From: Escherichia phage HP3
Sequence record: NC_041919.1
Direction: 5' to 3' (one strand)
DNA length: 64,000 bases
Made by a program: the position numbers and the translations under genes. Shown here one piece after another: positions 322 through 33,486 of this stretch. The stretch's first letter is position 1, and every line of letters begins with the position of its first letter. The notes below the pieces were generated by a model. The model saw only the letters and a list, made by a program, of their open reading frames with translations. It did not search any database and was not told where the DNA came from.

Positions 322-1784
322 TGATTCTTAAAATTCTGAACGAAATAGCATCTATTGGTTCAACTAAGCAGAAGCAAGCAATTCTTGAAAAGAATAAAGA
401 TAATGAATTGCTTAAACGAGTATATCGTCTGACTTATTCTCGTGGGTTACAGTATTATATCAAGAAATGGCCTAAACCGGGTATTGCTACCCAGAGTTTT
501 GGAATGTTGACTCTTACCGATATGCTTGACTTCATTGAATTCACGTTAGCTACTCGGAAATTGACTGGAAATGCTGCAATTGAGGAATTAACTGGATATA
601 TTACTGACGGTAAAAAAGATGATGTTGAAGTTTTGCGTCGGGTGATGATGCGAGACCTTGAATGCGGTGCTTCAGTATCTATTGCAAACAAAGTTTGGCC
701 AGGTTTAATTCCTGAACAACCTCAAATGCTTGCAAGTTCTTATGATGAAAAAGGCATTAATAAGAATATCAAATTTCCAGCCTTTGCCCAGTTAAAAGCT
801 GATGGAGCTCGGTGTTTTGCTGAAGTTAGAGGTGATGAATTAGATGATGTTCGTCTTTTATCACGAGCTGGTAATGAATATCTAGGATTAGATCTTCTTA
901 AGGAAGAGTTAATCAAAATGACTGCAGAAGCTCGCCAGATTCATCCAGAAGGTGTGTTAATTGATGGCGAATTGGTATACCATGAGCAAGTTGAAAAGGA
1001 GCCAGAAGGCCTAGATTTTCTTTTTGATGCTTATCCTGAAATTAGTAAAGCTAAAGAATTCGCCGAAGTAGCTGAATCACGTACTGCATCTAATGGCATC
1101 GCCAATAAATCTTTAAAGGGAACCATTTCTGAAAAAGAAGCACAATGCATGAAGTTTCAGGTCTGGGATTATGTCCCGTTGGTAGAAATATACGGTCTTC
1201 CTGCATTTCGTTTGAAATATGATGTACGTTTTTCTAAACTAGAACAAATGACATCAGGCTATGATAAAGTAATTTTAATTGAAAACCAGGTAGTAAATAA
1301 CCTAGATGAAGCTAAGGTAATTTATAAAAAGTATATTGACCAAGGTCTTGAAGGTATTATTCTCAAAAATATCGATGGATTATGGGAAAATGCTCGTTCA
1401 AAAAATCTTTATAAATTTAAAGAAGTAATTGATGTTGATTTAAAAATTGTAGGAATTTATCCTCACCGTAAAGACCCTACTAAAGCGGGTGGATTTATTC
1501 TTGAATCAGAGTGTGGAAAAATTAAGGTAAATGCTGGTTCAGGCTTAAAAGACAAAGCCGGCGTAAAATCGCATGAACTTGACCGTACTCGCATTATGGA
1601 AAACCAAAATTATTATATTGGAAAAATTCTAGAGTGCGAATGCAACGGTTGGTTAAAATCTGATGGCCGCACTGATTACGTTAAATTATTTCTTCCGATT
1701 GCGATTCGTTTACGTGAAGATAAAACTAAAGCTAATACATTCGAGGATGTATTTGGTGATTTTCATGAGGTAACTGGTTTATGA
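321..1784 (+). CDS. 30: ATP-dependent DNA ligase (T4 gp30)
   Basis: 487 aa, same length as T4 DNA ligase; N-terminus MILKILNEIASIGSTKQKQAILEKNKDNELLKRVYRLTYSRG matches my recollection of T4 ligase; adenylation motif KADGARCF (KxDG); synteny with alt. Confidence 0.95.
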   Translation: MILKILNEIASIGSTKQKQAILEKNKDNELLKRVYRLTYSRGLQYYIKKWPKPGIATQSFGMLTLTDMLDFIEFTLATRKLTGNAAIEELTGYITDGKKDDVEVLRRVMMRDLECGASVSIANKVWPGLIPEQPQMLASSYDEKGINKNIKFPAFAQLKADGARCFAEVRGDELDDVRLLSRAGNEYLGLDLLKEELIKMTAEARQIHPEGVLIDGELVYHEQVEKEPEGLDFLFDAYPEISKAKEFAEVAESRTASNGIANKSLKGTISEKEAQCMKFQVWDYVPLVEIYGLPAFRLKYDVRFSKLEQMTSGYDKVILIENQVVNNLDEAKVIYKKYIDQGLEGIILKNIDGLWENARSKNLYKFKEVIDVDLKIVGIYPHRKDPTKAGGFILESECGKIKVNAGSGLKDKAGVKSHELDRTRIMENQNYYIGKILECECNGWLKSDGRTDYVKLFLPIAIRLREDKTKANTFEDVFGDFHEVTGL

Positions 1785-1969
1785 AAGCTTACTTAGAAAC
1801 AATTGTCATTGCTCAAAAAGAAGGTGGAGATGTTTCTACTTCTGTATCACAAGTCATTCTCGAATTTGTAGATGCATACGCTTATAATAAATTTACAGAA
1901 ACATTTGATGCCTATGAAAAAGGACCAAAGTTTGAAATATATCGTACTCTCTTACCACTAGATTACTAA
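1781..1969 (+). CDS. hypothetical small protein
   Basis: 62-aa ORF overlapping the ligase stop by ATGA; followed by a hairpin and a late-promoter box. Confidence 0.4.
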   Translation: MKAYLETIVIAQKEGGDVSTSVSQVILEFVDAYAYNKFTETFDAYEKGPKFEIYRTLLPLDY

Positions 1970-1970
1970 A

Positions 1971-1988
1971 GGCCTTCGGGCCTTTAAT
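1971..1988 (+). terminator. GC hairpin ggccttcgggcc followed by T-rich tract
   Basis: UUCG-type tetraloop hairpin directly after the ORF stop. Confidence 0.5.
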
Positions 1989-1990
1989 TT

Positions 1991-1998
1991 TATAAATA
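1991..1998 (+). promoter_or_regulatory. T4 late promoter box TATAAATA upstream of alt
   Basis: exact TATAAATA about 20 nt upstream of the ATG at 2019. Confidence 0.55.
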
Positions 1999-2018
1999 GA
2001 ATAAACACTAGAGAGGCT

Positions 2019-4076
2019 ATGATGGAACTTATTACAGAATTATTTGACGAAGATACTACTCTTCCGATTACAAACTTAAATCCAAAGAAGAAAATACCGC
2101 AAATTTTTTCAGTTCATGTTGATGATGCAATTGAACAACCAGGCTTTCGTTTATGTACCTATACATCTGGAGGTGATACTAATCGCGATTTAAAAATGGG
2201 CGATAAAATGATGCATATTGTTCCTTTTACATTAACTGCTAAAGGTTCAATTGCTAAATTAAAAGGTCTTGGTCCAAGCCCAATTAATTATATCAATTCA
2301 GTTTTTACTGTTGCAATGCAAACAATGCGTCAGTATAAAATTGATGCTTGTATGCTTCGTATTCTTAAGTCTAAAACCGCTGGTCAAGCTCGACAAATTC
2401 AAGTTATTGCTGATAGACTTATCCGTAGTCGTTCAGGTGGCAGATACGTCCTTCTTAAGGAACTCTGGGATTATGATAAAAAGTATGCATATATTCTTAT
2501 ACATCGCAAAAATGTATCACTAGAAGACATTCCAGGAGTTCCGGAAATTAGTACCGAGCTCTTTACTAAAGTTGAATCGAAGGTCGGTGATGTTTATATC
2601 AATAAAGATACCGGAGCTCAAGTAACCAAAAATGAGGCAATTGCAGCATCTATTGCACAAGAAAATGATAAACGTTCTGACCAAGCTGTAATCGTTAAAG
2701 TTAAAATTTCCCGTAGAGCAATTGCACAAAGTCAGTCATTGGAATCTTCTAGATTTGAAACACCGATGTTTCAAAAATTTGAGGCTTCAGCGGCAGAATT
2801 AAATAAACCAGCGGACGCGCCTTTAATTTCTGATTCTAATGAATTAACGGTAATTTCTACTTCAGGATTTGCACTAGAGAATGCTCTTAGCAGTGTTACA
2901 GCTGGGATGGCATTCAGAGAAGCTTCTATAATTCCTGAAGATAAAGAATCCATTATTAATGCAGAAATAAAAAATAAAGCTTTAGAAAAATTACGAAAAG
3001 AATCTATTACTTCAATAAAAACTTTAGAAACTATTGCTTCTATCGTCGATGATACTTTAGAAAAATATAAAGGTGCTTGGTTTGAAAGAAATATTAACAA
3101 ACATTCGCATTTAAATCAAGATGCTGCGAATGAGTTAGTACAAAATTCTTGGAATGCAATAAAAACAAAGATTATTCGAAGAGAATTGCGTGGATATGCT
3201 CTTACCGCTGGATGGTCACTACATCCTATAGTCGAAAATAAAGATTCATCTAAATACACACCAGCACAAAAACGCGGAATTCGTGAATACGTAGGTTCAG
3301 GATATGTAGACATAAATAATGCTCTTTTGGGATTATATAATCCAGATGAGCGTACAAGTATTTTGACAGCATCTGACATAGAAAAAGCTATTGATAATTT
3401 AGATTCAGCCTTTAAAAATGGTGATCGATTGCCAAAAGGTATTACTTTATATCGTTCACAGCGAATGTTACCTTCAATATATGAAGCATTGGTAAAAAAT
3501 CGAGTTTTTTATTTTAGAAATTTTGTATCAACATCATTATATCCAAACATTTTTGGTACTTGGATGACTGATTCAGCTGTTGGTGTTTTACCAGATGAAA
3601 AGCGTCTAAACATTTCTATCGATAAAAATGATGAAGGGCTTGTTAATTCTAGCGATAATTTAGTCGGAATTGGATGGGTTATTACTGGGGCTGATAAAGT
3701 CAATGTTGTTTTACCCGGTGGAAGTTTAGCGCCTTCAAATGAAATGGAAGTTATTTTGCCACGTGGATTAATGGTCAAAGTTAATAAAATAACTGATGCA
3801 TCTTACAATGATGGAACAGTTAAAACTAACAACAAGCTTATTCAAGCTGAAGTTATGACCACGGAAGAGCTCACCGAATCGGTAATCTATGACGGAGACC
3901 ATTTAATGGAAACTGGTGAATTGGTTGCAATGACAGGTGATATTGAAGTAGAAGACAGAGTTGACTTTGCATCATTTGTTTCATCAAATGTTAAACAGAA
4001 AGTAGAATCATCTCTTGGAATTATTGCGTCTTGTATAGATATTGCAAACATGCCTTACAAGTTCGTTCAAGGATAA
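2019..4076 (+). CDS. alt: Alt-family ADP-ribosyltransferase, packaged and injected (copy 1)
   Basis: 685 aa (T4 Alt is about 682 aa); N-terminus MELITELFD...; conserved core CTYTSGGDTN...KMMHIV...QYKIDAC; ART-like R/STS/E elements (LYRSQ, FVSTSL, EVILPRG); position between gene 30 and gene 54. Confidence 0.85.
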   Translation: MMELITELFDEDTTLPITNLNPKKKIPQIFSVHVDDAIEQPGFRLCTYTSGGDTNRDLKMGDKMMHIVPFTLTAKGSIAKLKGLGPSPINYINSVFTVAMQTMRQYKIDACMLRILKSKTAGQARQIQVIADRLIRSRSGGRYVLLKELWDYDKKYAYILIHRKNVSLEDIPGVPEISTELFTKVESKVGDVYINKDTGAQVTKNEAIAASIAQENDKRSDQAVIVKVKISRRAIAQSQSLESSRFETPMFQKFEASAAELNKPADAPLISDSNELTVISTSGFALENALSSVTAGMAFREASIIPEDKESIINAEIKNKALEKLRKESITSIKTLETIASIVDDTLEKYKGAWFERNINKHSHLNQDAANELVQNSWNAIKTKIIRRELRGYALTAGWSLHPIVENKDSSKYTPAQKRGIREYVGSGYVDINNALLGLYNPDERTSILTASDIEKAIDNLDSAFKNGDRLPKGITLYRSQRMLPSIYEALVKNRVFYFRNFVSTSLYPNIFGTWMTDSAVGVLPDEKRLNISIDKNDEGLVNSSDNLVGIGWVITGADKVNVVLPGGSLAPSNEMEVILPRGLMVKVNKITDASYNDGTVKTNNKLIQAEVMTTEELTESVIYDGDHLMETGELVAMTGDIEVEDRVDFASFVSSNVKQKVESSLGIIASCIDIANMPYKFVQG

Positions 4077-6516: not shown

Positions 6517-7482
6517 TTATATTGCTCCTAATATTTTACTTTGCGAATTGACAATTCCTGTCATAGTATTAATGTTTGAAATGCTTCCTGCAGTTCCACC
6601 TAATCTACTGAGTCGTGAAAGCGAATTAGATAGTCCAGTAACACCTCCACTATTTCCGAGAACGCTTTGAATACCATTTATAGCAGCAGATTCAAGCCAT
6701 TCAAGCGCAGCTTGCCTATCAACTGCTCCAGCCTGCATGACTCTATATGCAAAAGTAACATCAAATGTAGTTATTTGGTTATCTCCATCATATGATAACT
6801 CAGGAGCGCTCACTGACACTGGAATGCATCCGGTGAACATTACCGCAGTATGAGGTAATCCATTGCGAGAATGAAGATTAACCTGAATATCTGCCTCGAC
6901 ATCTTGTGGCAAAGCACGCAGTCCAGTTACTGGGTCTTGAACAGCGTTAACCCAGTCTTGCATTGCACGATAGTTACAAGCTTCTGAATCCATTCTAAAT
7001 GAAATAACCAAAGGGTCTAATTCTCTCCCAGTTATACGAATATTAGGAGAGTTGTAGTTCCAGTCAGTTTCATAGGATAATCTATTCTCTGGCATTTTTA
7101 CAGAGTATATCATCAATCCAGATGAGTTATATGCCATGTTAAAGAAGTCAATTAAATATGTACCAACTGTAAATGAGCCTAATAAACTTTGAACTGTACG
7201 TTGACTCATGGCACCAATAAGATATTTACTAACCCCTGATTTTCTTATCAGTTTTTGTGTGCCAGCAGTAATTAGCGTGGTAATTCCCTGATTAATATCG
7301 CCTTGAGACAATCCTAACCAGTCTGAATTTAGACCCAAGTTATTATAAGAAAAGTTGCTAATTGAACTTATCAACGAAGAGCTTTTAGTTGATGGAGTTG
7401 TTGCAAAAACGCAGCTAAACATATTATTACGTTGGAAATCTGCGTTTATTGCTTGATTATTAAATTCCTCTAAAGAATACAT
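6517..7482 (-). CDS. 54: baseplate tail-tube initiator (gp54)
   Basis: 321 aa (T4 gp54 about 320); synteny 54-48-29. Confidence 0.85.
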   Translation of the reverse strand: MYSLEEFNNQAINADFQRNNMFSCVFATTPSTKSSSLISSISNFSYNNLGLNSDWLGLSQGDINQGITTLITAGTQKLIRKSGVSKYLIGAMSQRTVQSLLGSFTVGTYLIDFFNMAYNSSGLMIYSVKMPENRLSYETDWNYNSPNIRITGRELDPLVISFRMDSEACNYRAMQDWVNAVQDPVTGLRALPQDVEADIQVNLHSRNGLPHTAVMFTGCIPVSVSAPELSYDGDNQITTFDVTFAYRVMQAGAVDRQAALEWLESAAINGIQSVLGNSGGVTGLSNSLSRLSRLGGTAGSISNINTMTGIVNSQSKILGAI

Positions 7483-8576
7483 TAAAAAGTCCCCGCATAT
7501 AAAGAAGCACGATTTAACGTGATAATTTCTCTCATAGTAATCTCAAGAGTAAATGTACTAGGGAGGTTTGGAGCAATAGCTAATCCGTTAAAATTACCAT
7601 TCGGAGTTTTATCAAATCTAATACTTTGAATTTGACACGGTCCAAACACTTCTGTTTTTCCGTCAAATTTAGAAGTTGCGCCAAAGTTTTTAACCATCCA
7701 AATTGTCGGGTTTGAAACTACAAGAACGTTAGTTAAACTCGATGTCATTTTCTCAAATAACGTCTTATTTTTAACTGCATCTTCTGGAGTTAATGGCTCA
7801 ATAAAAGTAGAACGGTACCACTCATCTAAATATCCTTTTATTTCAGCAGCATATTGAGATTTACCAGTTTCACCGTAAGAAAAATAGTTAAAATACTGAT
7901 AGATATTAATAATAGCCATTAAATCTTCTGTTGAGCGCGGAGTCAAATCCCAAGTGAACACTTTAGTTCTATTTTCAGCACCGCCGTACATGCTTCTGGC
8001 TGTCGTATAAATCTGTTCATTATTATCAGCCATTATACCTTGTGTTATACTTTCCAGCGCTCCAAATACTGCGGTTGAAGCCATATTGCTTAGCACACCA
8101 GTAGCAGTACCTCCACCTTTTGTAATAAGACTATCTTGAACATCATTAAATCTATGTGATGACGTATCGACGTCAGATTTAGATCTAGGTAAAAGAATAT
8201 TTGCAACAGGAACTTTACTTATTGTTCTTGAATTATTATCTGATATTAGTCCATTTGATAGTTTTGATACTGTATTACTGATAGTGTTTCTGGCTGTACG
8301 TAAAATACTCGAAGATGAAGAAGAGTAGTTAGATCTCATCGTTCTAAGACTTCCAGAATCCCTAGATGACATATTGTATGCAGTAAATAATAATCCATTC
8401 TTATATAGATCTGTTACCTGGAAGTCCCCTGTAGTGTCATTACCACTAGCACGCCCAGTTGGAAACTGGGCTGTGTATGTTTTAGTTCCTACTTCTGATT
8501 TAGTACTCTGTCCGGCTGAAATTGTTTCACCGGACTTTTTAATTAAATCAGCAGTTATTTCTTTAACAATTGCCAT
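7482..8576 (-). CDS. 48: baseplate tail-tube cap (gp48)
   Basis: 364 aa, same as T4 gp48; synteny. Confidence 0.85.
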   Translation of the reverse strand: MAIVKEITADLIKKSGETISAGQSTKSEVGTKTYTAQFPTGRASGNDTTGDFQVTDLYKNGLLFTAYNMSSRDSGSLRTMRSNYSSSSSSILRTARNTISNTVSKLSNGLISDNNSRTISKVPVANILLPRSKSDVDTSSHRFNDVQDSLITKGGGTATGVLSNMASTAVFGALESITQGIMADNNEQIYTTARSMYGGAENRTKVFTWDLTPRSTEDLMAIINIYQYFNYFSYGETGKSQYAAEIKGYLDEWYRSTFIEPLTPEDAVKNKTLFEKMTSSLTNVLVVSNPTIWMVKNFGATSKFDGKTEVFGPCQIQSIRFDKTPNGNFNGLAIAPNLPSTFTLEITMREIITLNRASLYAGTF

Positions 8577-8584
8577 ATTATTCC

Positions 8585-10357
8585 TTAATTAACTCCCGTC
8601 GCACCAAATACACCAGGAGCAGTTGTGCTTGTGACAGGTGTCATATTATGAACGACAGTATTTTTCTTAATAACATTATTAGTATTATTGATTGAAGGAG
8701 ATGCTTGTTGAACAGGAGCTTGTTGTGCTTTGTTCTTTTCAATCACCTGGACCTGTTTTGCTTCTGGTGATTTAGCAGAAGTTTCAGGTTTTGCTTCAGG
8801 TTGATTTTTCTTGAGCTCTTGATAAGTGGCATCAATTTTAGCAAATCTAGAAGCAAGTTCTTTTTTAACTGCTGGTGAATTATTTAAATCCGGATCATTC
8901 ATTCGTTTTTTAAGGTCTTCATGAGCAGCTTCAATTGATTTAACTGTCGAGTCTTTGCTCATATCAGCTGAATCAGCATATTTTTCAAAACGAATCATCG
9001 CAGCACGAGCTTCATTAGCTTTCATTAAAGCATTTTTTCTTTCTTCCGGTGAAAGTTGTTTTAATTTTTCTTCTTCTGCTGCACGTTCTTCGTCAGTAGT
9101 CAATGCTTCTTTATTATCTACACCACGAATCCAGTTAGATGCACGAGTTTTCCAGTTCGCAATTTTGTCTAATCCTTCTGCTATTGGGCCAAGATCATCA
9201 TTCATTCGTTTATCTTGATAATTTGCTACTTTTTCTTGGTCTTCTTTATTAAGAGATGCTCCAGTAGAATTTTGGAAATTTTCTAATGCTCTTCCTTCTA
9301 CTTCATCAGCAGTATCCTTCATGCCAGGAATGACTCGAAGAATTGCTGCAGATAATTTAGCCATACCTAATTGAATAAGCTCTCCTAAATTATAAAGAAC
9401 ACTTCCAAGCCCTTCAACAATAGCTACTGTTAATCCGCCCCAATCTCCAGCTTCCCAGAACTTTTTAATTTCATCAATAGATTCAAAGATGCTTTGTAAT
9501 AAAGGGCCCCAAGTTCCTGTTTCGCTTGAGAAAGTTTTAAAATCAGTGCTAAATAAATCCCAGGCTTTTGAAAATTTATCTGACCAGTATTTAAAATGAA
9601 CCATCAGCAGGTCTATTCCAATAACAACAGCCATTATCAATGCAACCATTTTAGCAGCTTCAATAGCAGCACTGACGGTATACTTAAATAGCATGCTAGA
9701 TATTTTATCAGTAATTGAAATAGATTTCTTAAATCCGAAATCAACTGTCTTTGTTAATTTATCTAAAGCTTGAGATAATTTTAAGTTAAATGCGTCTCTT
9801 TTTTGCTTCTCTTCTGGAGACTCTTGTTTTGGTTCAATTGGCTGAGGAGTAGGGAAAAAATCAGCATCAGGATCATTATTAACTGCTTCAGGAGCCGGTA
9901 ATAAAGGACCCACAGATTCAGCTGTATCATCCTCGACGACTTTAACAGGAATAGCATTTTCTACTACTGCTAAACTCGTTCCAGTCTGTTGAATTCCAGC
10001 TGTTTGAATTTTTTGTTCTAATAAACTCGTTAATTTATCTAATTTGCTTCCGAGTGATTCGCCTATTTCTTTATTGATATTATTGCCAATTTCAACAGTC
10101 TCGGCAATTAACTCAGAACCAGCAGTAGTATCACTCACTGCGCTTTCTACATTGTCAATTGCTCCAATTATTTCATTCGATTTTTCTTCGACAGTTTGAG
10201 CAATTAATTCAGAAGCAGCTTGAGCATCATCCAATTTCGTAGATATATCGTTAAGCCCAGATAAAGTGTTGGAAGCGGATTTAGCCGCTTCCTGTGTTGG
10301 TTTATTATCTGAAATAACTTTTCTACGCATCGTTTGCATTTCTTGTGGCTTTTTCAT
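8585..10357 (-). CDS. 29: tail length tape-measure protein (gp29)
   Basis: 590 aa, same as T4 gp29; synteny. Confidence 0.85.
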   Translation of the reverse strand: MKKPQEMQTMRRKVISDNKPTQEAAKSASNTLSGLNDISTKLDDAQAASELIAQTVEEKSNEIIGAIDNVESAVSDTTAGSELIAETVEIGNNINKEIGESLGSKLDKLTSLLEQKIQTAGIQQTGTSLAVVENAIPVKVVEDDTAESVGPLLPAPEAVNNDPDADFFPTPQPIEPKQESPEEKQKRDAFNLKLSQALDKLTKTVDFGFKKSISITDKISSMLFKYTVSAAIEAAKMVALIMAVVIGIDLLMVHFKYWSDKFSKAWDLFSTDFKTFSSETGTWGPLLQSIFESIDEIKKFWEAGDWGGLTVAIVEGLGSVLYNLGELIQLGMAKLSAAILRVIPGMKDTADEVEGRALENFQNSTGASLNKEDQEKVANYQDKRMNDDLGPIAEGLDKIANWKTRASNWIRGVDNKEALTTDEERAAEEEKLKQLSPEERKNALMKANEARAAMIRFEKYADSADMSKDSTVKSIEAAHEDLKKRMNDPDLNNSPAVKKELASRFAKIDATYQELKKNQPEAKPETSAKSPEAKQVQVIEKNKAQQAPVQQASPSINNTNNVIKKNTVVHNMTPVTSTTAPGVFGATGVN

Positions 10358-15042: not shown

Positions 15043-16554
15043 TTATAAATTAACTGTTTTCATTACGTAATTAAATTTTTCATCTGCGTAGCGCTGAATA
15101 CGATCAATGCCGTGTTTTAAAAGATAGTTCAAGTGAACATATTTCTTTTTAGTATTAGCAGATTTTGGCTTGACACCACAGTCATCTATGAGGTCCCAGA
15201 CTGTTGCGATTGTTTTAGAACCATGTTTACGTAATACGCGACCTATTGTTTGCAATACAATAATTTTAGATTTAACACCGTGTGCTAAAACAACGTGATG
15301 CAGATTTTTAACTGAAATACCAGTAGAAAATACACCATAACTAGCTACTATAATTATTCCTTTACCGTTTTCAGCTAAGGTTTTCATTATATTGCGGGTT
15401 TCGGTATCAACTTCCCCTGATACGTAATAAACTTTATCGTATTCATTTTTAATTAAATCGAAAATAGCTTTACCGTGCGATACGTGTTTAAACATGACAA
15501 AAGCGTTTTCATCTTTTTGTGCAAGCTTAATAGCTAATTTAGCGATCCATTTATTTCTTTTACTAAGCCCAGTAATAATTTTTATTTCTTCTTGGTAAGT
15601 TTTTCCCTTTAATTTAGTAGTGAACTCATCGGGATAGCGAAGAAAAATACTATTAATTTTTAACTCAGTTACTTGTCCATCTTCCATTAATTTAGAGGTC
15701 GTTACTGGCTTAAATATTTCACCGAACATTCCAACATACTGCATGATATTGGCTTTGCCATCACGTAATGAACCAGACAAACCGAATTTGAACATGCAGT
15801 TATTTAAACCTGATATGATAGATGAAATACTTTTTCCTGTAGCAAGATGACATTCATCATTCATCATCATTCCAAACTGTGAGAACCATTCTTTCGGTTG
15901 TTTTACTACAGTTTGCCATGTACCAACAACGACCGGTGCATCATTTTTATATTTATCATCTTTTGATGCTCCACCACCGATTTTCTTTATCATTGCATGA
16001 CTGAATAAACGATAGTCAACAAAGTCATCAGCCATCTGAGTTGTCAGAGCAGTTGTTGGAACAATAATAAGAATTTTGCCTTCATAATTTTCCAAATAAT
16101 ACCGAGCAAGCAAAGCTTGAATTAAAGATTTACCTGCGGATGTTGGAAGATTAAGAATTCTACGACGATTAACTAATCCTTCGAACACTGCATCTTTTTG
16201 ATACCAATGCGGTTCAATTCTTTTATTTCCTGAATAGATTTCTAATTTAGAAAGCCATTCATCAAAATCTTTTCTTGATAATTCTTCTTTTTCGTTAATC
16301 TGTGGGTCAATCCAGGCTTTATAGCCAAAGTTATCGCAGAACTTTTTAATTTGCCCGACTAAACCGAATGGAAGAAGGCGATTATAATCTAAAAGACGAA
16401 TTCGTCCATCCCAGTGGCCATATTTGTACTTCGGATTAAAACGATACCCATCAGCTTCAAAGCTAAAGAAATCACGGAGTTCATGAAATGTACTTTCTTC
16501 GCAATCAATTCTCACGTGACTAAAATCATAAAAATGTACTTTAATGTCAGTCAT
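15043..16554 (-). CDS. uvsW: RNA-DNA and DNA-DNA helicase UvsW
   Basis: 503 aa; Walker A LPTSAGKS and DECH box; N-terminus MTDIKVHFYDFSHVRIDCEE; synteny. Confidence 0.9.
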   Translation of the reverse strand: MTDIKVHFYDFSHVRIDCEESTFHELRDFFSFEADGYRFNPKYKYGHWDGRIRLLDYNRLLPFGLVGQIKKFCDNFGYKAWIDPQINEKEELSRKDFDEWLSKLEIYSGNKRIEPHWYQKDAVFEGLVNRRRILNLPTSAGKSLIQALLARYYLENYEGKILIIVPTTALTTQMADDFVDYRLFSHAMIKKIGGGASKDDKYKNDAPVVVGTWQTVVKQPKEWFSQFGMMMNDECHLATGKSISSIISGLNNCMFKFGLSGSLRDGKANIMQYVGMFGEIFKPVTTSKLMEDGQVTELKINSIFLRYPDEFTTKLKGKTYQEEIKIITGLSKRNKWIAKLAIKLAQKDENAFVMFKHVSHGKAIFDLIKNEYDKVYYVSGEVDTETRNIMKTLAENGKGIIIVASYGVFSTGISVKNLHHVVLAHGVKSKIIVLQTIGRVLRKHGSKTIATVWDLIDDCGVKPKSANTKKKYVHLNYLLKHGIDRIQRYADEKFNYVMKTVNL

Positions 16555-16583
16555 GTCTAAATACCATGTAATAAATATATCTA

Positions 16584-16591
16584 TATTTATA
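16584..16591 (-). promoter_or_regulatory. late promoter box (TATAAATA on minus strand) upstream of uvsW
   Basis: plus-strand tatttata about 30 nt upstream of the uvsW start codon. Confidence 0.4.
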
Positions 16592-16604
16592 CTGAGGAAA
16601 TATT

Positions 16605-17285
16605 ATGATAGATAAAGATTATATTGCAGAGCTGAAGGCTCTTGATGATAATAAAGAAGCTAAAGCTAAATTAGCTGAATATGCTGAACAGTTTGGTATA
16701 AAGGTCAAAAAGAATAAATCTTTTGATAATATCGTTAATGATATTGAAGAAGCTCTCCAGAAGCTCGCTAGTGAACCTATGCCAGAGACTGATGGGTTAT
16801 CTATTAAAGACTTAATTGATGCTGCTGATGCCGCAGACGGATTAAAATATGACGATGAAGAAGTCAATCCAGAGGCAGCACTTCTGATTGATTCTCCGGT
16901 TAAATCTGACATTAAAATTGAAGTAGTAGAAACGGATAAAATTCCTGAAAATACCACTGTTTTAATTGAAGATAATCCTTTTGTTGAAGAAAAATTCGAA
17001 CAGGCTGTAGCTGAGATTATTGAATCTGAAAAGCCGTCTGTATTTACTCTTCCGGAAAACTTTAGTCCGAATCTTCAGCTGATTGGAAAAAATCCAGGAT
17101 TCTGCACTGTTCCTTGGTGGATTTATCAATGGATTGCTGAAACCCCAGATTGGAAATCTCACCCAACTAGTTTTGAACATGCGTCGGCACACCAAACTTT
17201 ATTTAGCTTAATTTACTACATTAATCGTGACGGATCAGTTCTAATTCGTGAAACACGTAATTCTTCTTTCGTAACATTAAAATAA
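16605..17285 (+). CDS. inh: Inh-like protein (inhibitor of prohead protease), acidic
   Basis: 226 aa; position directly upstream of hoc as in T4; identity not verifiable by motif. Confidence 0.55.
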   Translation: MIDKDYIAELKALDDNKEAKAKLAEYAEQFGIKVKKNKSFDNIVNDIEEALQKLASEPMPETDGLSIKDLIDAADAADGLKYDDEEVNPEAALLIDSPVKSDIKIEVVETDKIPENTTVLIEDNPFVEEKFEQAVAEIIESEKPSVFTLPENFSPNLQLIGKNPGFCTVPWWIYQWIAETPDWKSHPTSFEHASAHQTLFSLIYYINRDGSVLIRETRNSSFVTLK

Positions 17286-17294
17286 GGATAACTT

Positions 17295-18713
17295 ATGGCT
17301 TTTACAGTTGATATAACTCCTAAAACACCTACTGGAGTTATAGATCAGACTCAGCAGTTTACTGCTACACCCAGTGGTCAAACTGGAGATGGACCTATTA
17401 CATATGCTTGGACTGTAGACGACGCTCCACAGGAAGAAACGTCAGCAACTTTTAGTTATGTACTAAAAGGACCTGCCGGTCAAAAGACTATTAAAGTAGT
17501 TGCAACCAATCAAGTTGCAGAATCTGAACCTGAAACAGCAGAAATTAGTACAACTATCACAGTTCAAAATAAGACACAAACAACTACTTTAGCTGTAACT
17601 CCTGGTAGCCCTGATGCTGGAGTGATTGGAACTCCAATTGAATTTACCGCTGCCTTAGCTTCACAGCCATCAGGTGCAAACGCTACGTATCAATGGCACG
17701 TTGACGGTTCTCCTGTAGACGAAGCAACTGACGCTACATTCAATTACACTCCTGACACAAGCGGAGTTAAAAAAATCAAGTGTGTAGCTCAAGTAACTGC
17801 GGCAGATTATGACGCAAAAACAGTTACTTCTAATGAAGTATCATTGACTGTTAATAAGAAGACACAGACAACTACGTTAGCCGTAACTCCTGCTAATCCT
17901 GCTGCCGGAGTAATTGGAACAGCCGTTGAATTTACTGCTGCCTTAGCTTCTCAACCTGATGGGGCATCTGCTACGTATCAGTGGTATGTTGACGGTTCTC
18001 TGGTCGATGGAGAAACTACTACTACATTTAACTATACTCCTACCACAGTTGGAGCTAAAACAGTTAAGTGTGTAGCGCAAGTAACTGCAGAAAATTACAA
18101 TGAAAAGGAAGTTACTTCTAATGAAGTATCATTAACAGTTAATAAGAAAACAATGAATCCACAGGTTACATTGACTCCTCCTTCTATTAACGTTCAGCAA
18201 GATGCTTCGGCTACATTTACGGCTAATGTTACGGGTGCTCCAGAAGAAGCACAAATTACTTACTCATGGAAGAAAGATTCTTCTCCTGTAGAAGGGTCAA
18301 CTAACGTATATACTGTCGATACCTCATCTGTTGGAAGTCAAACTATTGAAGTTACTGCTGTCGTTACTGCAACTGATTACGATAGCAAAACTATTACAGC
18401 AGAAGGTCAAGTTCAGGTAACTGATAAAGTTGCTCCAGAACCAGAAGGTGAATTGCCTTATGTTCATCCTCTTCCACATCGTACTTCAGCTTATATCTGG
18501 TGCGGTTGGTGGGTTATGGATGAAATCCAAAAAATGACCGAAGAAGGTAAAGATTGGAAAACTGAAGATCCAGACAGTAAATACTACCTGCATCGTTACA
18601 CTCTTCAGAAGATGATGAAAGACTATCCAGAAGTTGATGTTCAAGAATCACGCAATGGATACATCATTCATAAAACTGCTTTAGAAACTGGTATCATCTA
18701 TACCTATCCATAA
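17295..18713 (+). CDS. hoc: highly immunogenic outer capsid protein Hoc, with four Ig-like domains
   Basis: 472 aa (T4 Hoc about 376 aa as I recall); repeated Ig-like modules with TYxW motifs; conserved C-terminal capsid-binding region; synteny inh-hoc-rnlB. Confidence 0.8.
   Translation: MAFTVDITPKTPTGVIDQTQQFTATPSGQTGDGPITYAWTVDDAPQEETSATFSYVLKGPAGQKTIKVVATNQVAESEPETAEISTTITVQNKTQTTTLAVTPGSPDAGVIGTPIEFTAALASQPSGANATYQWHVDGSPVDEATDATFNYTPDTSGVKKIKCVAQVTAADYDAKTVTSNEVSLTVNKKTQTTTLAVTPANPAAGVIGTAVEFTAALASQPDGASATYQWYVDGSLVDGETTTTFNYTPTTVGAKTVKCVAQVTAENYNEKEVTSNEVSLTVNKKTMNPQVTLTPPSINVQQDASATFTANVTGAPEEAQITYSWKKDSSPVEGSTNVYTVDTSSVGSQTIEVTAVVTATDYDSKTITAEGQVQVTDKVAPEPEGELPYVHPLPHRTSAYIWCGWWVMDEIQKMTEEGKDWKTEDPDSKYYLHRYTLQKMMKDYPEVDVQESRNGYIIHKTALETGIIYTYP
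17568..18140 (+). repeat. tandem direct repeat of two ~285-nt units inside hoc (duplicated Ig-like domain)
   Basis: unit 1 at 17568-17852 and unit 2 at 17853-18140 encode near-identical peptides (KTQTTTLAVTP...FTAALASQP...ATYQW.VDGS...KCVAQVTA..Y..K.VTSNEVSLTVNKK). Confidence 0.8.
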
Positions 18714-27082: not shown

Positions 27083-27574
27083 TTATTCCCAATAATCGAG
27101 AGCAAGAGTTACTTCAAAGGTTTGGATTTCATTGTTTGAATCCCAATCTAATTGAAGTTCACCCACGTTAGTAGGCCACAGACCTTTAATTTCAATTTCT
27201 TTTGTTACTGTTTTAGCATCACGAGCATATTGACGAACAATAGCGCTCTTTTTATACTCTGCAGGTTTTCCACCAGTAATTTCGTTTCCTTGACCAGCAG
27301 CAATGCTTTGCCAATCAACAAACTTCTGGCGAGCATCATGAGCTTCATCGTTCATTACTGTAACAGTCCAGTCATCGAATGTACGATCGCCTGCTACGTT
27401 AATTTTACGGTTCATAAATCCGACTGGAATTTTTTCTACAATACCAGCTGGTAAAGCAGTGGCTTTACATTGGAATGTAAAATTTTGTCCAAGATAAGAA
27501 ATTTCTACTTGGAATAAGTTAGGTCGAGCAAAATCACCAGATTCAAACGCTCGTGTTACATCATCTACAAACAT
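27083..27574 (-). CDS. 19: tail tube protein (gp19)
   Basis: 163 aa, same as T4 gp19; synteny. Confidence 0.9.
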   Translation of the reverse strand: MFVDDVTRAFESGDFARPNLFQVEISYLGQNFTFQCKATALPAGIVEKIPVGFMNRKINVAGDRTFDDWTVTVMNDEAHDARQKFVDWQSIAAGQGNEITGGKPAEYKKSAIVRQYARDAKTVTKEIEIKGLWPTNVGELQLDWDSNNEIQTFEVTLALDYWE

Positions 27575-27588
27575 ATTAGCCTCTGTAG

Positions 27589-27596
27589 TATTTATA
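27589..27596 (-). promoter_or_regulatory. late promoter box for gene 19 (proximal)
   Basis: plus-strand tatttata 15 nt upstream of the gene 19 start. Confidence 0.45.
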
Positions 27597-27647
27597 TCCC
27601 TATGTTTAACCTAGGGCATATAGAATTAAAGAATTAAGGATATAGTG

Positions 27648-27655
27648 TATTTATA
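27648..27655 (-). promoter_or_regulatory. second late promoter box upstream of gene 19 (distal)
   Basis: plus-strand tatttata between the HNH stop and gene 19. Confidence 0.4.
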
Positions 27656-27656
27656 T

Positions 27657-27674
27657 GGCCTGCCGAAACAGGCC
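27657..27674 (-). terminator. hairpin ggcctgccgaaacaggcc after the HNH gene
   Basis: perfect stem with GAAA-containing loop just downstream of the HNH ORF stop. Confidence 0.5.
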
Positions 27675-27681
27675 TTTAGAA

Positions 27682-28332
27682 TCATTCTAGTAAATCCCAA
27701 AGATCTACACTATTTCTTTTTGATTTTTCTCGGTTAGATTCCCAAGTGATTATTTCTAAATTATTAATACCGCCAATTATTTTAGCAGGAATTAAATTAT
27801 CAAAACCGTATTTGATAGATACCTTATGATCAAGTTGGTAAGCGCCTTTTGTACCACACACTCCTATTTTATCAGCATTTGGCCATTTTGACCAAATTTT
27901 CTTATGCTTACGAGTTTCTTTATATACCGATGAAATATATTCACGCATTTCAGATTTATTTGGGTTCCATCTTGGATGATTTACGCCATGCATACATTCT
28001 ACTGTTTTTCCTTTATTCGCGGAACCATATGAATTATTGCGCATTTTATCTTTATGACGGCAATCACGACAAATATCAGTGTTTCTTCCAATGCGTTGGT
28101 TATATTCAATTCCACATTTATCGCAACGGCATTTTACATACGCGGTACTACCTTTAATGTCTTCAACTTTAACATCAATTTCATAATACCTAAATCCATG
28201 TTTAACCGCTCCAAGAGGTGTTAATTTATAACCCTTTGATTGATAATGTTTAAAATTTGATGGTACAATTTTCACTTTAATAAATTTAGAAATAATCACT
28301 TGATTCCTCGAGAATAGGGGCCGAAGCCCCAT
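27682..28332 (-). mobile_element. free-standing HNH homing endonuclease gene (Mob-like) between genes 18 and 19
   Basis: 216-aa ORF; C-terminal HNH motif QLDHKVSIKYGF...GGINNLEIITWESNREKSKRN; Cys cluster CRCDKCGIEYNQRIGRNTDICRDCRHK (zinc finger); very basic; the ATG lies inside the gene 18 terminator hairpin, so a GTG at 28302 with RBS gagga is an alternative start. Confidence 0.7.
28317..28330 (-). terminator. hairpin ggggccgaagcccc after gene 18
   Basis: perfect GC stem immediately downstream of the gene 18 stop. Confidence 0.5.
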
Positions 28333-28337
28333 ATCAA

Positions 28338-30317
28338 TTAACCTGCAAGACCAGTTAACTCATCGAAATCTGCACCAGTAGCAGTTGCGACGAAATTCAA
28401 AGTAATATAATTTATACTGCGCGCCGGTTGAATGTAGAATGTTGCAACAAACTCATTTCTATCAATTACTGACGGAGTGTTATTTGTTGTATCGCAAACT
28501 ACACGATATTCATAAATTCCACCGAGAGCTTTAATTCCCTGTAAGTACTGGGCAGTTTCTGTGCGGAATGATGAACGAGTAAACGCGTTGTTTAATTCGA
28601 ACAAACGATATTTTGAACTACGTCCGATATTCGTTTTCAACATATTAAACAGACGACGAACGTTAATACGATCAAATGGAGAAGGAACAGAAGTAGCTGT
28701 TTTATCACCATACAATACGTAACCATCACCACCTGTACCAGTTACTGGGTTGATAGCTTCTTGATATAAACGGTCGCGCTGAGCTTGGCGAGTTTCAATA
28801 GCAAGTTTAATAACGTTAAGAATCTGACCACGATTATAACCAGCTGGAGACATCCAAGTCTGAGAAACGTTATCAGTTCTCGCGCATAAACCAGCAATGT
28901 CAGCTGCTAATGGAACCCAACGATTTACATCATTATATTTGTCATACTGATATTTGTAGTTACCATCAATTGCTGCGTAGGTTGAACTAATATTAAAGTT
29001 ATTATCAGTATATGAACCTGCCGCAGTTCTCCAGTTAACTAAATTATCTACTGCACGAGTTACAGGAATTCCAACAACAGTTTCACGCGGTGGTGAGCAC
29101 AATACTAAGCAATCTTGGCGAGCATCTCCAATTGAAACGACGTGTTTTTGGACAGTAGATGCTGTTTCTAAAGATTCACCGGCACAAGAACCCGCAATAA
29201 ACAGTTGAACGTCAACAGATTCACGGTCAGCAAAGAAGTCCCAAGCTTCCATCAAATCTCCTGCTGTAACTTCAGCATTTGATGATAATCCACCAGAAAG
29301 AGTTAAAATTCCAGAGAATCCTTCTGGCCAGTTTTGTGCAGTTGCAAAAATATATTCTGAACCACCTTTTGCGAAAAAGTCATCGATATAGATGTTACTA
29401 TCGTAAATATCTTTTTCACCACGCTTAGTTGAAAGAACAACGCTTTGAACAATAGCATCATTTCGACGAACTATAATAGCGTACTGTGAGTCAGTCTGCG
29501 GCCCATATCCAAATACTGCCTTGGCAGTAGATGCACGAGTACCACCACCTGGATAAATTGGCAGTAATGCAGAAGCGCCTTTCGCATAGTCAGCTTTAGA
29601 TACGATTTCAATTTCAATTTTATCGCCTAATTCGCCTGGATAGAGAGCTACTACTCCTGGAATTCCATATTTTTCAAGATTTGCCTGAAAATCAACTGCT
29701 GTCATAGCAGTTTCAGCGCTCTCGATTTCAGCTAATAAAATACCGGAATCAGTAATAATTTTTCCAAGAGTTATTACTGCAGCTAAACCGGAAGAAGATG
29801 AAGAAATTTCTGCAGTCCAGTTAGAACCTAATGTTGGGTATTCGCCAACTTCTTTAGCTTTAGCAATAATTTTTGCAGTAGGAATATTAATTTTCTTAAT
29901 TTTTCCATCAGCATCTACTTCGGTAATTTTACCTTCTGTTTCAACATCTTCTGAAACATATTTGACCGTGATTTTATCTCCAACCGCGTAGTTACTACCT
30001 GGGGTAGAAATTGTGTATTCAATATTACCAGCAATCGGAGATGAGTTTTTAGCGGTATCTCTATCGACAGCGCGCACAACTCGCAAATCATTTCCATATT
30101 GTAAGAAATTCATTGCAGACATAAAATAGTCAGCAGTTTCAGCTGTAGGTTGACCAAAAGTATTAACTAAATCTACTTCGTTTGTAACCTGTTTAATCTG
30201 AAAAGCAGGACCCCACTGGAATTTACCGGCCAAAGCTGCTGTACCAGTAGAGTTATTAACCACGGTGCTTTGAACCGTAGTTTCTTTGAGCTCAATGCCC
30301 GGAGATAATAAAGTCAT
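28338..30317 (-). CDS. 18: tail sheath protein (gp18)
   Basis: 659 aa, same as T4 gp18; synteny. Confidence 0.9.
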   Translation of the reverse strand: MTLLSPGIELKETTVQSTVVNNSTGTAALAGKFQWGPAFQIKQVTNEVDLVNTFGQPTAETADYFMSAMNFLQYGNDLRVVRAVDRDTAKNSSPIAGNIEYTISTPGSNYAVGDKITVKYVSEDVETEGKITEVDADGKIKKINIPTAKIIAKAKEVGEYPTLGSNWTAEISSSSSGLAAVITLGKIITDSGILLAEIESAETAMTAVDFQANLEKYGIPGVVALYPGELGDKIEIEIVSKADYAKGASALLPIYPGGGTRASTAKAVFGYGPQTDSQYAIIVRRNDAIVQSVVLSTKRGEKDIYDSNIYIDDFFAKGGSEYIFATAQNWPEGFSGILTLSGGLSSNAEVTAGDLMEAWDFFADRESVDVQLFIAGSCAGESLETASTVQKHVVSIGDARQDCLVLCSPPRETVVGIPVTRAVDNLVNWRTAAGSYTDNNFNISSTYAAIDGNYKYQYDKYNDVNRWVPLAADIAGLCARTDNVSQTWMSPAGYNRGQILNVIKLAIETRQAQRDRLYQEAINPVTGTGGDGYVLYGDKTATSVPSPFDRINVRRLFNMLKTNIGRSSKYRLFELNNAFTRSSFRTETAQYLQGIKALGGIYEYRVVCDTTNNTPSVIDRNEFVATFYIQPARSINYITLNFVATATGADFDELTGLAG

Positions 30318-30345: not shown

Positions 30346-33486
<3,141 letters not shown>

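Follow-up and report, generated by a model that had tools for sequence, protein, structure and literature searches.

A probable free-standing homing-endonuclease gene of the T6 ORF19.1 family between tail genes 18 and 19 of Escherichia phage HP3

In a 64,000-nucleotide (nt) stretch of the genome of Escherichia phage HP3 (NC_041919.1; this whole stretch is called the window, and positions are counted from its first letter), we analysed an open reading frame (ORF) that lies between the genes encoding the tail tube (gene 19) and the tail sheath (gene 18). This ORF is part of an optional cassette, comprising a hairpin, a Shine-Dalgarno sequence and a GTG-initiated ORF of 205 amino acids (aa), that starts one base past the stop codon of gene 18 and is probably a free-standing homing-endonuclease gene. 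Alignments and a structural model indicate that the encoded protein most likely combines an N-terminal zinc-ribbon DNA-binding half with a C-terminal, divergent HNH nuclease. The window is ~100% identical to Escherichia phage HP3.1 and 99% identical to RB3, both of which are Tequatroviruses. An earlier note on this DNA had described a basic ORF of 216 aa between the tail tube and tail sheath genes, and had taken it to be an insertion that is missing from phage T4. PHROG matches of both neighbouring genes confirm the position, and an alignment of the junction confirms the insertion. The ORF is likewise real and its product basic (isoelectric point, pI, 9.6-9.7; 40-42 Lys and Arg residues versus 22 Asp and Glu residues), but the likely product is the 205-aa protein that starts at the GTG. 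The interval 27575..28337 is flanked by two minus-strand genes and contains this one long ORF, also on the minus strand:

27083..27574, minus strand: gp19 (PHROG 'tail tube' match)
28338..30317, minus strand: gp18 (PHROG 'tail sheath' match)
27683..28336, minus strand: insertion-specific DNA, 654 nt (alignment of filled and empty junctions)
27682..28299, minus strand: gene from GTG, 205 aa, pI 9.6; member of the PHROG 5104 / T6 ORF19.1 family
27682..28332, minus strand: ORF from ATG, 216 aa (ATG at 28332, stop at 27682)

The alignment of the 18-19 junction, which the earlier note had proposed as a check, gives exact boundaries for the insertion. The 654 nt take the place of the 7 nt ACGGTGC that are found at the empty, T4-type junction; they begin one base past the gene 18 stop codon and end inside the stop codon of the inserted gene. 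T4 does not have the ORF, and its 18-19 spacer is 647 nt shorter, so the finding that the earlier note had named as speaking against its reading, namely the same ORF at this position in T4, was not made. In T4 and in all other empty genomes examined, the junction reads ...CTTGC(A/T)GGTTAAT-ACGGTGC-ATTCTAAAGGCCTGTTTCGGCAGGCCATATAAATA..., and the G+C content of the insertion is 32.9%, versus 38-39% in genes 18 and 19. We considered the synonymous GCA/GCT difference located 5 nt from the junction as a mark of carriers, and rejected it because GCA also occurs in four empty genomes.

To establish how the filled and empty states are distributed, a collection of 50,697 phage records was searched with a 151-nt probe for the empty junction, for which a contiguous match was required. 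The empty junction is present in 501 records, including several records of T4 and the original M19085 entry; most of these matches are at least 99% identical, and the nine empty genomes that were examined all share one junction. The cassette exists as two alleles: the core of allele A, the type found in the window and in RB3, is present in 46 records, and the core of allele B, the type of T6 ORF19.1, in 70, making 617 Tequatrovirus-level junctions in all. Overall, the cassette occurs in ~19% of Tequatrovirus-level records, with ~81% lacking it. The flanks of filled and empty genomes are 96-99.7% identical, and one species recognised by the International Committee on Taxonomy of Viruses contains both an empty genome (G3F9) and a filled one (UTI-E4). 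The gene is thus optional, with exact boundaries among otherwise near-identical genomes, as is expected of free-standing homing-endonuclease genes. A scan of IMG/VR with gp19 yielded 15 loci, and all those from Tequatrovirus are empty; in one other lineage, one locus (L020) is filled and its two sisters (L019 and L021) are empty. Two records with T4-like 18/19 regions carry unexpected host names, namely MG010123 (Staphylococcus phage SAJK-IND, 32 kb), where the DNA identity is 97.7%, and PV654520 (Pseudomonas phage vB_PSGBLB0006), where there is a protein match at the level of allele B. Both are probably mislabelled or contaminated with Tequatrovirus DNA.

The two alleles differ mainly in a central segment:

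27895..28273, minus strand: allele-specific central segment, ~380 nt, with 27-63% DNA identity between allele A (window, RB3) and allele B (T6, Sso113)

The ends of the cassette (the first ~60 nt and the last ~210 nt) are ~77-100% identical between A and B, except for 30 nt that adjoin the divergent core. The alleles are mosaics that have their ends in common and their centres swapped. T6 ORF19.1, whose sequence has been in GenBank since the 1990s, belongs to the same family and occupies the same 18-19 slot, and is 49-51% identical to the window protein over its full length. It shares the cassette ends (the hairpin, the Shine-Dalgarno sequence, the GTG and the first ~8 codons), and its C-terminal nuclease half is nearly identical, but the central ~380 nt, corresponding to aa ~10-135 and thus to the presumed DNA-binding half, are replaced.

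Comparisons with more distant phages suggest that the gene has a history of its own. Over its first 100 residues, the N-terminal half of the window protein is only 35% identical to allele B of its own genus, versus 61% to the relative in Klebsiella phage Roth17 and 56% to that in Shewanella phage Thanatos-2, and in these two phages gp18 and gp19 share only 67-83% identity with those of the window. Conversely, Serratia phage X20 has closer structural genes and a more distant copy. On pairwise identities, then, the phylogeny of the gene disagrees with that of its flanking genes, as horizontal spread would produce, and the sequences taken together indicate both horizontal and modular exchange. 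Full-length relatives are found directly after gene 18 in phages of Klebsiella, Acinetobacter, Serratia, Pectobacterium, Shewanella, Aeromonas and Sinorhizobium as well as in Tequatrovirus; in the Sinorhizobium phage, the gene downstream of the relative is not gp19. Members of the family are present in ~246 phage records. A further relative occurs in Acinetobacter phage 133 (positions 1570-3647 of locus L029), where the 822-bp ORF Acj133p227 splits rnlA into rnlA-A and rnlA-B. The C-terminal domain of its product is homologous to the nuclease domain of the window protein (hhalign probability 99.1%, E 1.8e-18), and its depositors remarked on 'some similarity to ORF19.1 of T6'. This protein has a different N-terminal half, and its gene splits another gene rather than sitting between two. 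A relative inside a split rnlA is a classic homing-endonuclease footprint.

These observations also bear on an alternative that we regard as unlikely, in which the gene is an old resident encoding an accessory nuclease (acting, for example, against host or competitor DNA) that has been vertically inherited at the 18|19 position and repeatedly lost, and that does not propagate itself. Such a history would explain why the same slot after gene 18 is used in many genera, even in phages of Sinorhizobium, and why no target-site 'immunity' substitutions separate carriers from non-carriers. It would also agree with the intactness of the ORFs examined. (The copy in WL-3 was considered as a pseudogene and rejected as such, because its ORF is intact and the apparent fragmentation is a mis-annotation.) However, a resident gene would have to be missing from ~81% of the Tequatrovirus-level records, and the empty genomes have a common junction in nine of nine cases examined, which independent deletions would not produce. 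Vertical inheritance also accounts poorly for two alleles with N-terminal halves as dissimilar as those of A and B within one genus, of which allele A is nearer to copies in other genera, for the mosaic structure of the alleles, and for the relative that splits rnlA in phage 133.

That the cassette encodes a nuclease is suggested by the C-terminal half of the protein (205-aa numbering is used throughout):

27685..27987, minus strand: C-terminal nuclease domain (aa 105-205) with a beta-beta-alpha-metal core (alignment, model)
27826-27831, minus strand: D157-H158 codons
27760-27762, minus strand: N180 codon
27733-27735, minus strand: N189 codon
27724-27726, minus strand: K192 codon

This domain contains the pattern LDH(158)...N(180)L...N(189)xxK, in which D157, H158, N180, L181, W186, N189 and K192 are invariant among 26 homologues; the D, H, N, N and K residues are also invariant in 17 more distant copies of the domain. 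The stretch LDHKVSIKYGF...NLEIITWESNREK parallels the canonical HNH motif, DHIIPxxxGG...NLxxLCxxCNxxK. In an AlphaFold model (mean predicted local distance difference test score 84.5), the D-H pair ends a strand (154-158), NLEII forms another (181-185), and N189 lies in a helix (186-192). Both the arrangement that characterises the HNH superfamily, a beta-hairpin followed by a helix with a metal ligand, and its characteristic residues (D-H, Asn, Asn) are thus present. We consider it highly probable that the domain has the fold of a divergent HNH nuclease, of an 'HNN' variant with D157-H158, N180 and N189. The earlier note had reported a clear C-terminal HNH motif and had named absence of the catalytic His and Asn residues on alignment as grounds for doubt. 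The pattern is indeed present, with these residues invariant, but standard profiles (Pfam, NCBIfam, PDB) do not recognise it.

Specifically, the protein has no significant sequence match in Pfam, NCBIfam or PDB, no family of the HNH clan in Pfam matches it at E<=1, and a profile built from the 26 sequences returned only zinc-finger noise. Its relatives have sub-threshold Pfam matches to HNH (PF01844, E 1e-3), HNH_4 (E 6e-3) and HNH_5 (E 0.22), and two of them were named McrA by the Joint Genome Institute. A Foldseek search of the model against PDB found nothing, while a search against viral models (BFVD) retrieved members of the family along with proteins whose names include HNH or homing endonuclease (at E 1.5e-5 and 4e-4). 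One of the BFVD models, M1HDJ8 of Salmonella phage S16 (106 aa), matches only the C-terminal nuclease domain, at 67% identity and with a TM-score of 0.87 on the target; it is a version of this domain that is either truncated or stand-alone. When 1.84 billion cluster representatives were searched with the profile, 6258 proteins matched at E<=1e-3, of which 1373 reached E<=1e-10. Many of these share only the C-terminal domain, which is fused to other N-termini; among them are phage proteins in which the N-terminal part consists of repeated DUF7487 modules (PF24308), a domain that has no match in the window protein at E<=1. The nuclease domain has no second copy (paralogue) in the rest of the 64,000-nt window.

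The other half of the protein has the appearance of a DNA-binding domain:

28042..28299, minus strand: N-terminal half (aa 1-86) with beta strands, a helix and a CxxC...CxxC zinc ribbon (alignment, model); presumed DNA-binding domain
28123-28125, 28114-28116, 28069-28071 and 28060-28062, minus strand: codons of C59, C62, C77 and C80, respectively

The CxxC...CxxC arrangement comprises residues 59, 62, 77 and 80, of which C59, C62 and C77 are invariant in the 26 homologues, in agreement with the zinc-finger-like Cys cluster that had been seen upstream of the HNH motif. Profile matches to treble-clef or zinc-finger families are faint: DUF4379 was matched by 7 of the 26 homologues (best E 0.012), and mS66 and ZNF483 were matched at E ~0.006.

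Given the failure of HNH profile models to recognise the protein, the replacement of the last metal ligand, His, by Asn, and the low expression suggested by a weak GTG start and the lack of a promoter of its own, one could suppose that the gene is the relic of a homing-endonuclease gene, in decay or no longer encoding an active enzyme, or that it encodes a DNA-binding protein on an HNH-like scaffold that takes effect by binding rather than cutting. Degenerate copies are, moreover, expected in plenty from the life cycle of homing endonucleases. We nonetheless consider this very unlikely, as the D-H...N...N...K residues are invariant not only within the family but also in the distant copies, and the domain family is very large. 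Furthermore, in each of the 46 allele-A and 70 allele-B records the match covers 80% or more of the core segment, and no translated copy is interrupted. An Asn in place of the last His is also compatible with catalysis, since I-HmuI is an active HNH enzyme with this substitution.

If the gene is a homing-endonuclease gene, as we favour, it should be compared with the free-standing families already described in T-even phages. The window protein resembles MobA-MobE in that its gene is free-standing, intergenic, located beside essential genes and optional in T-even phages, and in that HNH-type chemistry is expected. However, the HNH domain of T4 Mob proteins is at the N-terminus and their DNA-binding region at the C-terminus (PMC2988022), and the order of domains is reversed in the window protein, whose N-terminal half is the zinc ribbon. 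PHROG and Pfam searches, with no direct alignment to Mob sequences, detected no relationship to MobA-MobE. Since its nuclease is C-terminal and there is no PHROG or Pfam link, the window protein is not a Mob protein. Nor is it a Seg protein, as no GIY-YIG family appeared in Pfam at E<=1 or among the PHROG matches. A Hef-like identity was considered and rejected, as Hef is Vsr-like (PMC3239194) and the window protein does not have a Vsr-like fold. Membership in the Mob (HNH), Seg (GIY-YIG) or Hef (Vsr-like, EDxHD) families, in favour of which one can cite a similar lifestyle and type of genomic neighbourhood and a 'Hef-like' endonuclease gene that adjoins the tail tube gene in LIMEstone phages (PMC3296691), is therefore hardly credible for a protein with a C-terminal nuclease that matches PHROG 5104 alone at E<=1e-3 and neither GIY-YIG nor HNH_3 in Pfam at E<=1, and the Mob/Seg-type assignment of the earlier note is not supported. 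Two HNH enzymes of known structure, the Geobacter Gme nicking endonuclease (4h9d) and that of phage GVE2 (5h0o), are 11-14% identical to the window protein, and both lack a site-specific zinc-ribbon half. HNH enzymes of the GVE2 type act with terminase in packaging and are not known to act in homing.

The start codon and the regulatory surroundings of the gene determine how it might be expressed:

28300..28332, minus strand: 11-codon in-frame extension up to the ATG, probably untranslated; the ATG overlaps a hairpin stem and has no Shine-Dalgarno sequence
28305..28309, minus strand: Shine-Dalgarno sequence GAGGA, 5 nt upstream of the GTG start
28317..28330, minus strand: cassette hairpin GGGGC-UUCG-GCCCC (GGGGCTTCGGCCCC), directly after gene 18; no U-tract
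27657..27674, minus strand: native post-gene-18 hairpin GGCCUG-UUUCGG-CAGGCC, also in T4; outside the insertion
27648..27655, minus strand: distal late-promoter box TATAAATA for gene 19, native, identical in T4
27589..27596, minus strand: proximal late-promoter box TATAAATA for gene 19, native, identical in T4

The true start is likely the GTG at 28299 rather than the ATG at 28332, because GAGGA precedes the GTG at a distance of 5 nt, the ATG is placed in the hairpin stem with no Shine-Dalgarno sequence, and both the homologues and the PHROG match begin at MIISK. All homologues start with this pentapeptide at the position of the GTG, where the start codon is ATG in Thanatos-2 and GTG in POP12, and the match to PHROG 5104 (annotated as 'unknown function'; E 9.8e-91) begins at residue 12 of the 216-aa ORF. 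The depositors of RB3 and T6 also chose the GTG. The local RNA fold around the start is weakly better than that of shuffled sequences (z = -2.06), and with so small a deviation we do not claim that the ribosome-binding site is sequestered. A scan of the region for sigma-70 promoters and terminators found sites to be no more numerous than in shuffled sequence.

The two hairpins and the two late-promoter boxes that the earlier note saw bracketing the ORF are all present, but the downstream hairpin is not the cassette's own, and the proposal that the insertion brought or duplicated regulatory sequence does not hold. The whole 108 nt upstream of gene 19, including its ribosome-binding site, are base-for-base identical in the empty junctions of T4 and G3F9, and both TATAAATA boxes and the GGCCTG..CAGGCC hairpin are therefore native. 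The GGGGCTTCGGCCCC hairpin, by contrast, is missing from empty sites, is conserved in allele B, and is identical in Shewanella phage Thanatos-2, where it stands ahead of that phage's copy. The cassette's own regulatory parts are only this upstream hairpin and the Shine-Dalgarno sequence. Among the 70-nt segments after the gene 18 stop codon that were sampled (loci L007-L028), a G+C-rich hairpin follows gene 18 in most T4-like genera, and in most empty sites a late-promoter-like ATAAATA comes directly after it; in cassette-bearing genomes there is also a hairpin ahead of the inserted ORF.

There is no promoter-like element between the gene 18 stop codon and the GTG, and the hairpin has no U-tract, which makes late expression by read-through probable. 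The gene, having no promoter of its own, would then be transcribed by read-through from late gene 18 past the UUCG hairpin, and its translation from the GTG would be weak and at a low level. In a mixed infection with a phage that has the T4-type empty junction (...GGTTAAT-ACGGTGC-ATTCTAAAGG...), the enzyme would bind, and nick or cut, near the junction or the 3' end of gene 18; nicking would resemble that of MobA and MobE (PMC2988022). Recombinational repair of the T4 type would subsequently transfer the cassette to the recipient, together with no more than ~100 nt of adjoining gene 18 sequence. Genomes that already carry the 654-nt insertion would be protected, as it would interrupt their target site. 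Many free-standing homing endonucleases in T-even phages are found beside essential genes (PMC2988022; PMC10448857). Marker exclusion and local gene conversion by the cassette are plausible.

Traces of such events were sought in the flanks of 17 genomes (5 with allele A, 3 with allele B and 9 empty) that were aligned over +/-4 kb. Only one region has a haplotype that goes with the state of the junction (A, B or empty), carriers of one allele sharing a haplotype there:

28337..28436, minus strand: last 100 nt of gene 18

Here the between-group divergence exceeds the within-group divergence by 6.6% (permutation p = 0.0015), and a patch at ~28385-28425 contains dense, almost entirely synonymous differences that form three haplotypes. 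In all remaining bins, up to 4 kb away in both directions, within- and between-group divergence are equal and there is no association with allele state.

Several points nevertheless weigh against a homing endonuclease. The haplotype link could reflect short co-conversion tracts or a recognition/immunity patch, but it also agrees with plain linkage or hitchhiking, the sample is small, and two genomes break the pattern: YwIITB1 has allele A on a T4-like haplotype, and G3F9 is empty on a carrier haplotype. Apart from the insertion itself, no fixed difference separates filled from empty genomes within ~140 nt upstream or ~170 nt downstream, and the target and the basis of self-immunity are therefore guesses. 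The constant position after gene 18 across many genera could also point to an old, often-lost resident gene. Finally, the literature that we searched contains no description of this gene or of a function of ORF19.1.

A broader proposal, which we put forward tentatively and which we think somewhat more likely to be wrong than right, is that the ORF19.1 family represents an ancient line of HNH homing endonucleases which has kept to the 3' end of the tail-sheath gene across the Straboviridae, and out to the T4-like phages of Sinorhizobium and Campylobacter. The lineage would move between genera as a hairpin-plus-ORF cassette, and the two Tequatrovirus alleles, with their DNA-binding halves swapped and their nuclease half homogenised, would compete for one site, with the synonymous patch 50-90 nt inside gene 18 marking the region of recognition or immunity. 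If this is true, local exclusion of gene 18/19 markers would be expected in crosses of RB3 x T4 or T6 x T4.

Some observations concern other loci. In the window, uvsW (15043..16554, minus strand) and inh (16605..17285, plus strand) are 50 nt apart (16555-16604) with no segE between them, while RB3, which is 99% similar, has segE (618 bp) in this position; homing-endonuclease content therefore differs between very close relatives. The ORF at 17295-18713 (plus strand), which by its position is hoc (head outer capsid), encodes 472 aa, compared with the 376 aa annotated in RB3, and contains the internal repeat TQTTTLAVTP...VSLTVNKKT twice, suggesting one extra Ig-like domain. In Escherichia phage HY03 (positions 7351-9902 of locus L033), the annotation of the large terminase gene 17 is broken into two parts by a 600-bp 'hypothetical protein' ORF (8724-9323), which is possibly another endonuclease gene that splits gene 17; in the window, gene 17 is intact (30349..32181).

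Homing-endonuclease genes are expected in T-even phages, which are the model system for free-standing ones, and this cassette is widespread in Tequatrovirus and in many other T4-like genera, yet it is annotated almost everywhere as 'hypothetical protein'. Relatives of its nuclease domain number in the thousands, and Pfam has no model that recognises the domain, so annotation could be improved. If the protein is active, its family would be distinct from Mob, Seg and Hef, and would offer a natural example of one nuclease combined with two DNA-binding modules at a single site, of use in studies of how specificity evolves. Recombination between therapeutic or engineered T4-like phages would then also show a predictable, local bias of markers near the tail genes. 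The fidelity to one site across genera, together with the swapped DNA-binding halves, makes the family a reasonable experimental target.

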